The translations under genes were made by a program, and so were the position numbers. Below the pieces are notes generated by a model. The model ran no database searches. It worked only from the letters and a program-made list of their open reading frames with translations, and was not told the origin of the DNA. Below, piece after piece: positions 23,837 through 32,137 of a stretch of DNA of 64,000 nucleotides. This DNA comes from Escherichia coli 042 (GTDB lineage: Bacteria; Pseudomonadota; Gammaproteobacteria; Enterobacterales; Enterobacteriaceae), in NCBI RefSeq assembly GCF_000027125.1, contig NC_017626.1. One strand, 5' to 3'. Within the stretch, counting starts at the first letter, position 1. Every line of letters starts with the position of its first letter.

Positions 23837-23913
23837 CGGCACGTAGCGCAGCCTGGTAGCGCACCGTCATGGGGTGTCGGGGGTCGGAGGTTCAAATCCT
23901 CTCGTGCCGACCA
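23837..23913 (+). tRNA. proL: tRNA-Pro (anticodon GGG)
   Basis: 77-nt sequence cggcacgtagcgcagcctggtagcgcaccgtcatggggtgtcgggggtcggaggttcaaatcctctcgtgccgacca; acceptor stem cggcacg/cgtgccg, T-loop ttcaaat, anticodon loop with U33-GGG-G37, encoded CCA. Confidence 0.93.
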
Positions 23914-23946
23914 AATCGACCATAGTTAATCATCGTTTTTATGAAA

Positions 23947-23983
23947 AAAGCCCGCTAATTCATTGAATAGCGGGCTTTTTTAT
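23947..23983 (+). terminator. rho-independent terminator of proL
   Basis: aaagcccgcta...tagcgggc hairpin followed by a T6 run. Confidence 0.75.
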
Positions 23984-24033
23984 TGCTTTTAGTCATCGTT
24001 ATTCCACGGTAACAGTGGTTTTCAGCCGTTTTT

Positions 24034-24058
24034 TTTAGTTATATGTTTAGTTATACGG
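24034..24058. repeat. left boundary direct repeat (putative attL)
   Basis: ttttagttatatgtttagttatacg matches 31999-32023 at 23 of 25 positions; an inverted partial copy ccgtataactaaaac lies at 24077-24091. Confidence 0.5.
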
Positions 24059-24119
24059 TCTGGCGGGTAGCTAAACCCGTATAACTAAAACCTGTTTTTT
24101 CCCGTGGATTCAAAAACGT

Positions 24120-25364
24120 ATGGCAAGAAAGGCGACCCCACTCACCACCACACAGATCAAAGCAGCTAAACCAGCGGAAAAAGAATACACCTTACAGGAT
24201 GGCGGCGGGCTTTTTCTCGTCATTAAGCCATCTGGTTCGAAACTATGGCGATTCAACTACTATCGACCATCGAACAAAAAACGAACAATCATTAGTTTGG
24301 GATCGCTCGATGAAGTCTCCCTGGCTGATGCCAGAAAACGCCGTAGCGAGTACAGGACGTTAATTGCGTCAGGGATTGACCCACAGCATCACGAGCGGCA
24401 AAAACGCGAAGCAGAGGCCAGAAGACAGGGCAACACGTTCGAAAATGTGGCCGCATCGTGGTACGAAATGAAAAAAAACCAGAATCTCGCCCACAATACG
24501 ATCAAGGACATCTGGCGCTCGCTAGAGAAATATGTATTCCCGTATATCGGAAACACACCGATAGATACTCTCACCGCTCGCCGCTTTGTTGAGATACTCA
24601 CGCCCATCAAGACACGTGGCAACCTGGAAACACTGAAACGCGTTTTACAGCGCATCAATGAAGTGATGGATTTTGCTGCCAACAGTGGACTGATTGACAT
24701 CAACACCGCTGCGAACGTCCGCAAGGCATTCCCTTCCCCCACCAAAAAACACATGCCAACCATCCGACCAGAACAACTACCGCAGCTAATGCACGATTTA
24801 TCGATCGCCAGCATAGAACGGCAAACCAGATTGCTGATTGAGTGGCAGTTGTTAACCGCAACCCGTCCAGCCGAAGCCTCCGCCGCACGGTGGGAAGAAA
24901 TCAACCTTGATGCGGCAACATGGACGATACCAGCCGGACGCATGAAGATGCGCCGTGATCATGTGATCCCTCTTTGCGCTCAGGCGATGGCAGTGCTTGA
25001 AGCCATGAAGCCGATTAGCGCACGAAGGGAGCATGTTTTCCCAAGTCTTAAAAATCCAGTGCAACCAATGAGCAGCCAGACAGCAAACGCAGCATTACGG
25101 CGAATGGGTTACACTGGTGTACTGGTATCTCACGGGCTACGCGCCATATTCAGCACAGCGGCGAACGAAGAAGGATTTGAGCCGGACGTAATCGAGGCCG
25201 CACTCGCACACGTGGACACGAACGAAGTTAGACGGGCATACAACCGAAGCAACTACCTGGAAAAACGTAAAGTGTTAATGTGCTGGTGGGGTGATTTTGT
25301 GGAAGCAGCCTCAACCGGAACAACCATCGCCAGCGGGCACAGGGGATTACGCGGAATAAAATAA
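24120..25364 (+). CDS. int: P4-family tyrosine integrase
   Basis: 414 aa; N-terminal arm-binding-type region (KEYTLQDGGGLFLVIKPSGSKLWRFNYY...), C-terminal catalytic region with HGLRAIFST and a tyrosine near the end (RAYNRSNY); adjacent to a tRNA gene in the same orientation. Confidence 0.85.
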   Translation: MARKATPLTTTQIKAAKPAEKEYTLQDGGGLFLVIKPSGSKLWRFNYYRPSNKKRTIISLGSLDEVSLADARKRRSEYRTLIASGIDPQHHERQKREAEARRQGNTFENVAASWYEMKKNQNLAHNTIKDIWRSLEKYVFPYIGNTPIDTLTARRFVEILTPIKTRGNLETLKRVLQRINEVMDFAANSGLIDINTAANVRKAFPSPTKKHMPTIRPEQLPQLMHDLSIASIERQTRLLIEWQLLTATRPAEASAARWEEINLDAATWTIPAGRMKMRRDHVIPLCAQAMAVLEAMKPISARREHVFPSLKNPVQPMSSQTANAALRRMGYTGVLVSHGLRAIFSTAANEEGFEPDVIEAALAHVDTNEVRRAYNRSNYLEKRKVLMCWWGDFVEAASTGTTIASGHRGLRGIK

Positions 25365-25377
25365 AATATTTAAAAAA

Positions 25378-25417
25378 TTATTGGTTCCTAATTGGTACCA
25401 ATTTGGAGCCAATTTGT
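25378..25417. promoter_or_regulatory. operator-like palindrome cluster in the int-alpA intergenic region
   Basis: ttattggttcctaattggtaccaatttggagccaatttg contains the perfect 14-bp palindrome aattggtaccaatt (25390-25403) flanked by CCAATT/AATTGG half-sites, in an AT-rich region upstream of alpA. Confidence 0.4.
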
Positions 25418-25616
25418 GTCTCTTTACTGTCTCATTTTGAGAAATATTTAAAATTCTTTTTATGTTAGAAAATTAAAAAATAACCAATCACATAACTCTT
25501 ATTAAATAATTCTTGACTTGCTTTTTTATAGATTTGTATTCTTTTTATATGTTTTTACATGTTTACCGTCATTTTCATTCAAAAAGCGGTATTTTACTGT
25601 CTATAGGAGAAATAAG

Positions 25617-29980: not shown

Positions 29981-30517
29981 ATGACTACACTGACTATTAG
30001 CAGAAAACCGAAAGGCATTTACGGCATACCACAGAAAAAGACACAGACGACACAGCAGCAGGATAAAACCACATCAGCGCATAAAGTGATACCCGGCAAT
30101 CAGAACGCACAGCAGAGCCGCAAACAGAAGCCCACAGGGGCGACACCGTGGCGGCATATGACCAAACGCCAGGGCAAAAACCGCAGGCGCGTTAACCGTC
30201 TTATTGAACTATGGCCTGAATTATTCAGCCTGGAATCACCGAAGCCGCTTAAGGTAGGAATATTTGAAGACCTGATACAGGATATTGCCGTCAGGGCGCT
30301 GGCTTTTGGGTCAGGGGCATTACGTGCGGCGCTAGCATCTTATGCTCATTCTCCGCGTTATTACCGTGCCTTAATGGCTGGTGGCGTGCGTTACGATCTG
30401 AATAGCCAGCCATGCGGCGAGGTGACACAACAGGAACAGCAGGACGCGGAAGCACGACTGATGGCACTGAAAGAGAAGCGCAAACGTAAGTCGAACAAGG
30501 AGCAAGCTGGCGTATGA
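29981..30517 (+). CDS. FinO/ProQ-family RNA-chaperone-like protein
   Basis: 178 aa; basic Q/K-rich N-terminus, then LIELWPELFSLESPKPLKVGIFEDL...RYYRALMAGGVRYDLNSQPCGEV, which resembles the FinO/ProQ N-terminal domain signature; assignment from memory only. Confidence 0.5.
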   Translation: MTTLTISRKPKGIYGIPQKKTQTTQQQDKTTSAHKVIPGNQNAQQSRKQKPTGATPWRHMTKRQGKNRRRVNRLIELWPELFSLESPKPLKVGIFEDLIQDIAVRALAFGSGALRAALASYAHSPRYYRALMAGGVRYDLNSQPCGEVTQQEQQDAEARLMALKEKRKRKSNKEQAGV

Positions 30518-30798
30518 GTATGATTCACGACAGCAAAGCGGAAGATCTGGAGGCTAAAGGCCTGTACCGGAGAGCGGCAGCCCGATGGGCTGAGGTCATG
30601 CAACAGGTGAACACCGATAAGGAGCGCGAACAGGCAGTAAAGCGTCGCGCGAAATGTATCCACAAGGCAGCACGTTCGCCCGTCATGCTGGATAATTTCG
30701 GGGGCTTGAGAGAGGCAGCAAACCGCACACAGGCGGATATGGGGATAGAAATCGCAAAATCTGTCTGGCGGAACTACCAGACAGACAAGGTTTTATAG
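30514..30798 (+). CDS. PerC-family transcriptional regulator-like protein
   Basis: 94 aa; AEDLEAKGLYRRAAARWAEVM matches the PerC/Pch-type motif (AE.LE..GLWRRAA.RW..VM); start overlaps the previous stop (ATGA coupling). Confidence 0.55.
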   Translation: MSMIHDSKAEDLEAKGLYRRAAARWAEVMQQVNTDKEREQAVKRRAKCIHKAARSPVMLDNFGGLREAANRTQADMGIEIAKSVWRNYQTDKVL

Positions 30799-30854
30799 TG
30801 GCAGTTCTGCATTATTTTTTGTGTTATTGAGTTGTAGAGCGTTTCAGGAGTTTT

Positions 30855-31064
30855 TTGAATCACATGAACGTTTCGCTGGTGGATATTCTTGACAAGTTGC
30901 AGCCAGGCCGACGCGTGCCAGCTCGCCGCAGTGCCTGGCATCTTCCGTACATCGTCTTTCTCGAACGGCGCGGAAACGATTTGATTGCGTTGAATCCCGT
31001 CACAAAGGATAGCGTTACGCTATCTCCTGAGAGTCTACTAGCCACAGACTGGGAGTACTGCTAA
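30855..31064 (+). CDS. hypothetical protein
   Basis: 69-aa ORF with a CAGGAG ribosome-binding-like site upstream; last ORF before the ~0.9 kb non-coding iteron region; no recognisable motif. Confidence 0.3.
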   Translation: MNHMNVSLVDILDKLQPGRRVPARRSAWHLPYIVFLERRGNDLIALNPVTKDSVTLSPESLLATDWEYC

Positions 31065-31597
31065 ACACAAACGCATCGAGGGTGCTGGCGTGTTGCCAGC
31101 CCCACCCCCTCCGAAATGATCCCCCAAAAAGTGCAAAATGATCCCCCATTAACGAACAGAAAACAAACAAAGAGCAACAAATAATCATTATTTACAATTC
31201 TTGACAAAAACACCCCCTATTTATAACCCTACCAAATTTAAAATTACATCTACAAAACAATAAGTTACAAAATCAGCAACGGATCATTTCGGAAAAAACG
31301 GTTAGTCCCTTTTTCGAAAAGGGATCATTTTGTTGCTTAAACTCATATGCGGATTACATATCAATACGCTAGTGATAGCCGTTCTGGAATGCCACAGAAA
31401 CGCGCTGTAATCGATTCTGGCGCAATTAGCTGTGCTAGGTAATGATTTACCTATCTGGGGATGTTGCGCACGTCTGGATTGCGTTACCACCGAAGATTGT
31501 GCGCATATGGTGGCTGTTACGGTGGCCTCCCGACAACGCAAAATTGCGGCGGCACAGTCGGTTTACCGCGCTAACACGGCTTGATTCACTCGCTCGA

Positions 31598-31717
31598 CTT
31601 GTCCCACCTCCCCCCCCAACTTGTCCCAAAACAGCCTAGACTTGTCCCACCTTACCTAATTTATTTCTAACAAAATCAATTTGTTAGGTGCTGGTGGGAC
31701 AGGTGGGACGGGTGGGA
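31598..31717. repeat. iteron cluster 2 (CTTGTCCC x3 and GGTGGGAC x3 flanking an AT-rich spacer), putative second cis-replication site
   Basis: CTTGTCCC at 31598-31605, 31618-31625 and 31640-31647; inverted GGTGGGAC(A/G)G at 31692-31699, 31701-31708 and 31710-31717; followed by (TA)n at 31729-31740. Confidence 0.6.
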
Positions 31718-31998
31718 CGGGTGGTTTTGTATATATATATACGAAAAATTGCATTCAGGAGGGGGGCGAAATTCCTGCAATCCATTACTTATGGAACTGT
31801 CCGCCCCGTCAAATTTTTACGCCCGCGCAATTAAAAAAATGCGTCACGCAGGTGGGCATGATGCCGATATGCTTGTCGGGTTCAGCTTTTTAAGGCGGCT
31901 GTAGATGTCAGGTTATCCGTGCTCATCCACCAGCCAGCTTCATAGCGGATAGCCGGAAAATGGTAACGGTTAAAGCTGTACATTTTTGCAGCAAATCA

Positions 31999-32023
31999 TT
32001 TTAGTTATACGTTTAGATATACG
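31999..32023. repeat. right boundary direct repeat (putative attR)
   Basis: ttttagttatacgtttagatatacg, 23 of 25 identical to 24034-24058. Confidence 0.5.
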
Positions 32024-32103
32024 ATTTCAAAACTCAATTAATCTACATCTTTAAAATCATGCAGTTACAGAATCAATTAAACTACTCTCGTGGCCAAAAA
32101 TCC

Positions 32104-32137
32104 CCAAAAAAACCAACCGTAAAGGTTGGTTTTTTTA
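32104..32137 (-). terminator. rho-independent terminator downstream of yejO
   Basis: aaaaaaaccaaccgtaaaggttggttttttt: hairpin with flanking A and T runs. Confidence 0.7.

Follow-up and report, generated by a model that had tools for sequence, protein, structure and literature searches.

The window analyzed here, a stretch of 64 kb from the chromosome of Escherichia coli 042, carries an insertion of 8,169 bp between proL and yejO (positions 23917-32085). We consider it probable that this insertion is a recently mobile, self-replicating island of the lineage formed by the phage-inducible chromosomal islands (PICIs) and the capsid-forming PICIs (cf-PICIs), and that it has no packaging or capsid module. 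Judged by its sequence, the island is best described as the integration module of a proL-site PICI, joined to the Rep/origin/SSB/ProQ/PerC module that is typical of cf-PICIs (SSB, single-stranded DNA-binding protein) and to a unique tail, with no module for packaging. The attachment site at proL was already known for PICIs; what is new is a variant of the E. coli PICI/cf-PICI lineage that is devoid of the packaging module. The original prediction for this region, made without database searches, had proposed a self-contained and strain-specific integrative element with a replication module and two iteron sites. This was borne out: all the features that it listed exist, and the island is missing from K-12 and from about 99% of E. 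coli genomes. It had left the choice between a reduced satellite and a distinct replicative, PICI-like integrative element; the PICI-like character stands, and the proposed relation to P4 applies to the integrase only (34% identity).

The family of the island was established via its replication protein, Rep. A search of IMG/VR yielded 80 loci with Rep relatives at 62-93% identity (loci are denoted below by L numbers), which were typed by tblastn using markers from this island, a cf-PICI, a PICI-like island and P4. Most of them were cf-PICIs and the remainder PICI-like islands, and their common gene order is int-alpA-icd-DUF4222-Rep-SSB-(ProQ/PerC). In the cf-PICIs among them, Rep-SSB-(ProQ/PerC) is followed by the genes for the major capsid protein, protease, portal, connector, HNH protein, small terminase (TerS) and large terminase (TerL). 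According to its RefSeq context, L003 is a cf-PICI that shares the left half of the island, SSB and ProQ/FinO included. L094, located between roxA and phoQ in an O157:H7 genome, shows the order DUF4222-DUF927-SSB-PerC followed by a capsid and terminase block, and is presumably of the EcCIEDL933 type. The closest Rep relatives are in this way found among the cf-PICIs (prototype EcCIEDL933; Alqurainy et al., 10.1101/2022.09.08.507074). These share with the island the coupling of DUF4222 and Rep, the SSB/ProQ-FinO/PerC block behind the origin, the two-module iteron origin and a block at the right end, but they differ in having capsid and packaging genes of their own and other integrases and attachment sites.

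The integration module connects the island to a second group. In Table S1 of PMC6092414, yejM-luxR/aidA is listed as the attachment site of six PICIs of 8.5-11.4 kb, namely EcCIATCC25922, EcCIED1a.1, EcCI11128, EcCI11368.1 and two Shigella elements. The four named E. coli elements use the same att site as the island and have the same rightward order of int, alpA, icd, small open reading frames (ORFs), DUF4222, replication gene and origin, and their size range overlaps the 8.2 kb of the island. The 'luxR' and 'aidA' of the table we read as narP and yejO, respectively. The two that were compared have the same arm repeats and shortened attR, and the integrase of EcCI11368.1 is 82.6% identical to that of the window. 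Relatives with integrases at 83-87% identity (L011 and others) carry a TerS that resembles Nu1 of lambda. The proL-site PICIs differ from the island in three respects: they have genes for a small terminase and for a major-capsid-like (capsid morphogenesis) protein, both of which the island lacks; their replication proteins are a RepA-type helicase or a member of the 'DNA primase family', whereas that of the island is a DUF927 protein; and they do not have the 1.3-kb tail with its 69-aa ORF and distal origin module.

Comparison with published definitions places the island in the PICI lineage and not in the P4 family, as far as gene content and order can tell. As described for Gram-negative PICIs (Fillol-Salom et al. 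2018), int lies at one end and is followed by alpA, all supported ORFs are on the + strand, the initiator gene is followed by an origin with two iteron sets around an AT-rich region, no phage structural or lysis gene was found in the island by PHROGs, NCBIfam and marker searches, and the attachment site and repeats are those listed for the six PICIs. The island genes were also counted against the published SatelliteFinder rules. For PICIs at least four of five core genes are needed (int, regulator, pri-rep, capsid morphogenesis and terS) and the island has three. Islands with three of the five form the 'Type C' class, treated as ambiguous and left aside by the authors (de Sousa et al. 2023, PMC10085698); satellite surveys have passed over thousands of PICI-like islands with three core genes as possibly defective. 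None of the cf-PICI markers (capsid, protease, portal, connector, HNH, TerS and TerL) was found in the island, while the same searches recovered all of them in relatives. The PICMIs (phage-inducible chromosomal minimalist islands) of the Vibrionaceae (Barcia-Cruz et al. 2024, PMC10803314) are likewise small, have a core of only int, alpA and a replication protein, and are devoid of genes for capsid remodelling or packaging, and they offer the best functional analogy for spread. Unlike the island, with its proL site, DUF927 Rep and E. coli host, they lie next to fis, encode DUF3987/DUF5906 primases and depend on virulent phages; a sequence relationship between the island and PICMIs was not found.

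The alignment to K-12 MG1655 that had been proposed to define the insertion fixed its boundaries. It is continuous up to position 23915 and picks up again at 32085, the spacing of proL and yejO in K-12 being 102 bp, and the 3' end of proL (K-12 bases 2274-2290) aligns at both junctions. The predicted interval, 23837-32137, does include the island, but its left end adds the tRNA gene and its right end the native bidirectional proL/yejO terminator (32105-32137), which lies to the right of the island. The integration target proL (23837-23913, + strand) is chromosomal and outside the element; it encodes tRNA-Pro(GGG), the only tRNA that ARAGORN recovered in the window (Rfam tRNA, 54.9 bits). Upstream of it lies a 586-aa ORF for YejM/LapC, and downstream of the island the gene for the 863-aa autotransporter YejO. 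The attL core (23900-23916) is a perfect CTCTCGTGCCGACCAAA, by which the element rebuilds the 3' end of the tRNA gene, and an element-borne terminator hairpin (23944-23981, + strand; a perfect inverted repeat of 14 nt followed by a T-run) takes the place of the native proL terminator. The attR core (32086-32099) is a shortened copy, CTCTCGTGGCCAAA, of the same short form as in EcCI11368.1, and varies between genomes by deletions of 1-4 nt at one spot, GTG[CCGA]CCAAA.

Eight copies of the island were compared, that of the window and seven from the USA, China, Pakistan, Switzerland, Australia and Ecuador. In seven of the eight, the stretch common to attL and attR comprises only CTCTCGTG, and L001 retains only CTCTCGT; the octamer CTCTCGTG probably represents the crossover region. 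All five copies of TTTAGTTATAYG in the window are found at the island ends, as three arm-type repeats on the left (24034-24089; two direct and one inverted, invariant in the eight copies) and, from the repeat analysis, two on the attR side (32000-32023, + strand). They are probable arm-binding sites of the integrase, and were entered as the 'att core' of PICIs at the proL site in Table S1 of PMC6092414. The whole island was present at a coverage of at least 80% in 52 of 5,426 complete E. coli genomes, the backbone alone in 57 and the tail alone in 64. The integrase (24120-25364, + strand, 414 aa) is an intact tyrosine integrase of the P4 family: it matches NF007246 over its full length (556 bits, cutoff 434) and retains all catalytic residues (R249, H338-x-x-R341, H364 and Y374). 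The points on which the original prediction depended are in this way all in place, the island being strain-variable, the integrase intact and the 712-aa protein homologous to helicase-initiators (see below).

The comparison of the eight copies provides evidence for maintenance and mobility. The copies are diverged, and nevertheless all ORFs are intact in each of them, bar the loss of the icd stop codon in the window and a doubtful 50-aa ORF in one copy. The ratio of nonsynonymous to synonymous polymorphism (pN/pS) was 0.10 for int, 0.04 for alpA, 0.19 for Rep, 0.20 for SSB, 0.24 for ProQ and 0.57 for PerC, and the core genes are under purifying selection. The iterons and the arm repeats are invariant or nearly so. 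At synonymous sites, int, alpA and Rep have diverged 3-4 times as far (0.12-0.15) as the flanking yejM (0.039), and the distances between islands do not correlate with those between flanks (Spearman r -0.39 to 0.01). L090 and L093, for instance, show 5 differences within the 8.17-kb island and 17 and 37 in the flanks of 1.7 kb, and the flank differences nearest to the island, at 23783 and 32092, are found at the att sites. Similarly, the window copy is 0.1-0.3% apart from L001 from int through Rep, while the flanks are 1.8% apart; overall, near-identical islands sit in flanks that have diverged by 1.5-1.8%. The reverse is seen for L001 and L088, where the left flanks are identical and Rep has diverged by 11.9%. 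The island is a mosaic of segments with discordant histories, and it occurs in diverse hosts and countries. Because the identity stops at the att sites, the pattern is characteristic of islands that have recently integrated, in a site-specific manner, into unrelated chromosomes. Given this att-bounded identity, the intact ORFs and the purifying selection, the island does not appear to be a decaying remnant.

Nevertheless, several observations weigh against a mobile island. The means of packaging or interference that characterize Gram-negative PICIs (terS, a capsid morphogenesis gene, rpp or a helper cos/pac site) are missing: PHROGs and marker searches of the island recovered no terS, capsid, portal, rpp-like or HNH gene, and the cosN sites of P2/P4 and lambda were not found when mismatches were allowed, the best match to the P2/P4 cos having 4 mismatches in 19 positions and lying inside rep. 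A sensitive blastn comparison with the HNH-terS regions of cf-PICIs and with Nu1-type regions gave no meaningful similarity, the only such match being that of block 31724-31973 to the right ends of cf-PICIs, and no segment of the tail matches any phage record. The junction of an excised attP was searched for as an exact pattern in IMG/VR and in degenerate form in metagenome contigs, with zero matches, although such a search is not decisive as circles are rare in assemblies and a match must be exact. Considering the mosaic nature of the island, the signal of purifying selection could partly come from recombination with active relatives. Deletion derivatives exist in some lineages, and every copy seen occupies a single chromosomal site. 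Finally, the shortened and polymorphic attR core could lower excision, yet the catalogued PICIs at proL have the same form.

Part of these observations would fit a defective PICI/cf-PICI remnant, the packaging module of which was deleted and which persists by vertical descent and occasional homologous recombination. The sisters at the same site, EcCI11368.1 and EcCIATCC25922, and L011 with the same integrase do carry terS and capsid-like genes, and a right-end block in common with cf-PICIs is what an internal deletion predicts; the further deletion derivatives, the absence of the attP junction from public contigs and the shortened attR core point the same way. On the other hand, identity up to the att sites within flanks that differ by 1.5-1.8% indicates site-specific integration and not recombination mediated by the flanks, and ORFs that are intact in eight diverged copies, pN/pS values of 0.04-0.24 for int, alpA, Rep, SSB and ProQ, the invariant iterons and arm repeats and the occurrence in diverse hosts and countries are hard to reconcile with decay. 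We therefore regard a remnant as rather unlikely.

The predicted origin of the island shows an organization that is not mentioned in the PICI and cf-PICI papers examined. The iteron TTGTCCCA occurs eight times in the window, on both strands, and seven of these copies fall within two clusters of ~140 bp (29310-29444 and 31597-31723), a clustering far beyond chance. Both clusters share the same layout, in which forward copies are separated by an AT-rich spacer from reverse copies. Origin module A (29309-29444) directly follows Rep and is composed of two forward and four reverse iterons around a spacer of 64% AT; it is near-invariant in the eight copies and its layout is that described for the origins of Gram-negative PICIs (PMC6092414). 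Origin module B (31597-31742) contains three forward iterons (spaced by 22 and 21 bp), a spacer of 75% AT, three reverse iterons 9 bp apart and a (TA)n run.

The geometry of module B recurs at the right end of the cf-PICIs L017, L019-L024, L028, L029, L035, L047, L073 and L081. The flanking sequence in these elements is 87% identical to that in the window, and the module itself is built from an iteron of their own (ACCCGC), which is also the iteron of their own Rep-proximal origin. Across the elements, the iterons of both modules co-vary with the specificity of Rep. Since the iterons change together at both modules within a conserved frame, it can be argued that Rep binds functionally at module B, which would represent a second, conserved module of the origin. 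The distance between the modules is flexible, as they may be adjacent or kilobases apart; in L094 (12692-13062) they are found side by side right after Rep. An origin of two modules, with iterons that co-vary with Rep and a second module that can move, bears on the replication biology of these elements. A scan of a genome collection by iteron geometry was uninformative, as it recovered seven matches in unrelated taxa that had only the short repeat in common. The arrangement had been compared in the original prediction with the left operon of P4 and its ori and crr sites, but this parallel did not hold up: Rep is unrelated to alpha, and in P4 the site directly behind alpha is crr, with ori situated ahead of the operon, whereas in the island module A follows Rep and module B is found near attR. 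Module B recalls crr in function at most.

Rep (27145-29283, + strand, 712 aa) is predicted to consist of an N-terminal Toprim-like fold, a central P-loop core and a C-terminal specificity region. The only Pfam domain recovered was DUF927 (residues 169-436). Among the structures in the PDB, similarity was found to a staphylococcal pathogenicity island (SaPI) protein, 8tch (E=9e-15), which we take to be SaPI Rep, and to the SCCmec helicase Cch, 5dgk (E=7e-4), and NCBIfam likewise links Rep to Cch. The protein contains the SSxGKT P-loop of this family and a Walker-B-like LLPLDE motif. However, the conserved motif in strand 1 reads IIFAGxDA in place of the EGxxD of Toprim domains, and the DxD motif that is also expected of a DnaG/Toprim primase is missing. 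Given these substitutions, we classify Rep as a DUF927 helicase-initiator of the SaPI-Rep/SCCmec-Cch family, the Toprim-like domain of which is probably inactive. Of the earlier designation as 'primase/helicase-like', the helicase/initiator part is retained; identity as a primase is unsupported, as the fold is there without the catalytic residues.

Two small genes precede Rep on the + strand. The first (26636-26821, 61 aa; phrog_3672, E=3e-14) has a start that overlaps the usual end of icd; it is intact in all eight copies, with a pN/pS of 0.94. The second encodes a DUF4222 protein (26861-27148, 95 aa; phrog_285, E=1e-25), and its stop overlaps the start codon of Rep. In other islands the DUF4222 gene lies directly upstream of, and overlaps, the genes for four kinds of replication proteins (DUF927, 'DNA primase family', DUF5906 and RepA-type helicase), which suggests a conserved accessory role that is independent of the type of initiator.

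Expression of the replication genes appears to be under control of an antisense RNA. The region upstream of icd, which had been described as a structured non-coding gap, in fact contains an isrK-type small RNA (sRNA) and a C4 antisense RNA. The isrK-like sRNA (26213-26289, + strand; Rfam RF01394, 52.9 bits, gathering score 50) has its own terminator (26268-26284). The C4/CI-type antisense (immunity) RNA (26314-26401, + strand; Rfam RF01695) scores 77.7 bits against a gathering score of 45 and matches over its full length. The loop of its second hairpin, GGUUUCCGUUAACACC, pairs with GUUAACGGAGG, a target that covers the Shine-Dalgarno sequence of icd (26437-26448, + strand; cognate duplex -17.8 kcal/mol) and ends 5 nt before the ATG. 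Copies of the target are also found upstream: the isrK-like sRNA holds GTTAACGG at 26254, and a sequence complementary to the C4 loop, comparable to seqA or an a1b1-like site, is present at 25993-26003 (+ strand; duplex -13.3 kcal/mol; inverted repeat). The Rfam family for such upstream C4 targets matched one relative. In four other elements that carry C4, both loop and target differ from those of the window and yet match one another, with compensatory changes in L014, L015 and L039. For four of the five elements, that of the window included, the cognate duplex of loop and ribosome-binding site (RBS) was at -13.7 to -20.1 kcal/mol; the weakest, -8.2 kcal/mol in L025, was obtained with an extracted loop that was short. 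These energies concern the loop only, as folding of the whole RNA against the flanks unfolds the RNA and is uninformative.

A C4 RNA above the gathering score, a loop complementary to the icd RBS region and upstream copies of the target are the hallmarks of the immunity modules of P1 (immI, c4-icd-ant) and P4 (CI RNA, seqA/seqC), where a C4-family RNA is likewise made inside the operon that it controls and has target sites upstream and at the RBS of an icd-like gene. Unlike in P1 immI, the genes after icd constitute a replication module and not an antirepressor, and unlike in both systems an isrK-type sRNA with a copy of the target lies ahead of C4. Because the replication genes lie downstream of icd, the most likely function of the C4 RNA is to prevent replication while the island is integrated. 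The Icd-like gene itself (26455-26694, + strand; NF033153, E=4e-17) encodes 79 aa in the window, as its stop codon (26641-26643) reads CAA, which adds 17 aa and runs across the start of the next ORF; in the seven other copies Icd has 62 aa, so that the ORF of window length is intact in only one of the eight.

RefSeq annotates an 'Ash family' pseudogene (26163-26416) that overlaps both isrK and C4. The frame is neutral (pN/pS 0.98), so the conserved entity at this stretch of the locus is the RNA and not a protein. At loci of this kind, the 'Ash' proteins in the annotation may have arisen merely from translating conserved RNA genes. This matters for genome annotation, as these calls overlap isrK/C4 RNA genes and behave as neutral when read as protein. 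Such pseudogene calls over isrK/C4 were also seen in L001, L088-L093 and L102, and a single PHROG, phrog_29966, covers 'Ash' plus Icd.

Combining the above, a recently mobile island of this lineage could function as follows. In the integrated state, the C4 RNA would block translation of icd and thereby reduce expression of the rep genes further downstream, in the manner of P1 immI and P4 immunity. The FinO-domain protein may, and this is speculation by analogy, assist the C4 RNA in the way that FopA stabilizes the Inc antisense RNA that controls repZ (PMC9977716). AlpA would act as the switch that responds to a helper, a role carried over from other Gram-negative PICIs, for which alpA-dependent induction is known (PMC6092414, PMC11773190, 10.1101/2022.09.08.507074). 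Rep would then load at modules A and B and, with the SSB of the island, replicate the circle, and PerC would act on transcription of the host or the helper. For transfer, PICMIs provide the precedent: with only int, alpA and a primase they are packaged by the helper as concatemers, in capsids of full size (PMC10803314). Given this precedent, and with no terS, capsid, rpp or cos found here, packaging of replicated concatemers by the helper phage's own machinery is the most economical model and the most likely route by analogy.

Whether the island goes as far as being a fully functional 'minimalist' satellite, an E. coli counterpart of the PICMIs, able to spread although it has no packaging gene itself, we put forward tentatively, as a possibility that falls well short of an even chance. 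If true, either the headful machinery of the helper takes the concatemers, or a co-resident cf-PICI of the same Rep/origin family supplies the capsids, which would make the island a satellite of a satellite; module B beside attP would then be a crr-like cis replication site or double as the entry point for packaging.

Transfer by conjugation was considered as well. The leading regions of plasmids and their fertility control typically involve SSB and FinO-like proteins. An integrative mobilisable element, replicating once excised and passed on via a co-resident plasmid or integrative and conjugative element, would explain why ssb adjoins a FinO-domain gene, a domain family best known from plasmids (PMC9977716), and why no packaging function was found. 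Yet ORF searches with PHROGs and NCBIfam found no relaxase, coupling protein or recognizable oriT (an oriT is not excludable from sequence alone), the plasmid collection matched only short fragments of the island, and the same SSB-ProQ/FinO-PerC module resides in cf-PICIs of the type that was experimentally shown to be mobilized by phages, which makes conjugative spread improbable. A reduced P4-type satellite in need of a P2-like helper is very improbable indeed, and already refuted as to family membership, for although the island shares with P4 the integrase family (34% identity, E=2e-83), an AlpA/Vis-type regulator, the CI class of RNA immunity and two sites of initiator-binding repeats, set apart from one another and reminiscent of ori and crr, its Rep has no detectable similarity to alpha (E=1.3), it has two of the seven P4 core genes (int and alpA out of int, psu, delta, sid, alpA, epsilon and alpha) where at least five are needed (PMC10085698), homologues of sid, delta, psu, alpha and epsilon and a terminase were not found in it by PHROGs and tblastn, nor was a P2/P4 cos, and tblastn located sid, delta, psu or alpha in none of the 80 Rep-relative loci. 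The original prediction had already noted that sid, delta, psu and capsid genes are absent, and PHROGs and marker searches agree.

In the case of a recently mobile island without a packaging module, the comparison provides population-genetic evidence that at least one packaging-less type of PICI-like island is kept by selection and was recently moved by site-specific integration. Either there is a route of transfer that has gone unrecognized, or satellites get by with much less equipment than is assumed in present models. The island also represents a natural PICI backbone without a morphogenesis module, which bears on the proposed origin of cf-PICIs from an ancestral PICI that acquired a capsid and packaging block.

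Behind module A the island continues with three genes on the + strand: an SSB (29520-29945, 141 aa; TIGR00621, 61.5 bits, cutoff 53.95) with an acidic C-terminal tip (DEIPF), a ProQ/FinO-domain protein (29981-30517, 178 aa), and a PerC-family regulator (30514-30798, 94 aa; phrog_994, E=2.6e-36; 'PerC family' in RefSeq). The ProQ/FinO-domain protein matches FinO (NF010317, E=1.7e-18) and ProQ (NF003434, E=2.7e-17), both below the curated cutoffs, and is named 'ProQ/FINO family' in RefSeq. This block is found at 80-90% identity in around 850 genomes; it recurs in E. coli PICIs and cf-PICIs as a module of their backbone and is not cargo. The earlier statement that the cargo function was open was in this respect only partly right; that no defence domain could be recognized agrees with PADLOC, which gave no match to a defence system for any of the island proteins.

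The tail, from the PerC stop to attR, measures 1.29 kb and not ~0.9 kb as was estimated, and it may not be entirely non-coding, given an unannotated orphan ORF of 69 aa (30855-31064, + strand), which is preceded by AGGAG, intact in all eight copies and putatively coding. The first 300 bp of the tail, which include this ORF, are the most conserved part of the island (nucleotide diversity, pi, 0.006). The ORF matches phrog_7206 (E=1.3e-6), a PHROG of unknown function, and an exhaustive HMMER search of 1.84 billion cluster representatives recovered near-identical E. coli proteins only. A sequence pattern had suggested Tad2/DUF2829, but this candidate was rejected, given those homologues and the absence of any Pfam match even at E<=10. 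Further to the right, a conserved block (31724-31973) is common to cf-PICIs; compared with L019 and L023, the identity is 87-88% over 31724-31871 and 88-95% over 31924/31934-31973. Between the two, at 31202-31335, a TTGACA box is followed after ~100 nt by a terminator-like hairpin (31305-31325) and a T-rich run, which could define a small transcript; Rfam gave no match for it.

Several variants of the island were observed. In MRE162 (L006, 4225-10018, at the same proL site) int through Rep and the tail are kept and SSB-ProQ-PerC has been swapped out for a cassette on the opposite strand, with a DNA methyltransferase, a DEAD/DEAH helicase and a GIY-YIG nuclease beside IS3 copies, which resembles a defence system. 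It is positioned between the origin and the conserved tail, an interval that can accordingly hold a swapped-in, defence-like cassette, and this exchange adds to the evidence for mobility. In L091 (E. coli LH13-b) an extra hypothetical gene of 194 aa (9837-10421) has been inserted into the tail, with module B on one side and the arm repeats on the other, pointing to a second cargo slot. E. coli 2017.11.01CC (NZ_AP025220.2, 1608226-1611185) has at the same site a deletion derivative that lacks Rep through PerC, int through icd being directly connected to part of the tail. Among the relatives, L011 (9278-12553) combines an 86%-identical integrase and the lambda-Nu1-like small terminase with, on the opposite strand, a protein of 563 aa whose C-terminus is of the colicin HNH type, a putative immunity protein of 82 aa and an ORF of 163 aa. 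The cf-PICI locus L025 has a sok antitoxin RNA (hok/sok family, 114 bits) at its left edge (543-717).

At the left end, the AT-rich region between int and alpA (25365-25616, + strand; GC about 0.37) is indel-rich and highly variable among the copies (pi 0.43), and contains a candidate alpA promoter, TTGACT-18-TATTCT, at 25513-25542. The AlpA-family regulator that follows (25617-25808, + strand, 63 aa) matches Pfam PF05930 (E=6.6e-6) and phrog_66. Beyond the right end, yejO (32198-34789, - strand) is an intact gene of 863 aa in the window, whereas the copy of K-12 MG1655 is a pseudogene split by IS5, and in some other carriers of the island yejO contains internal stops.

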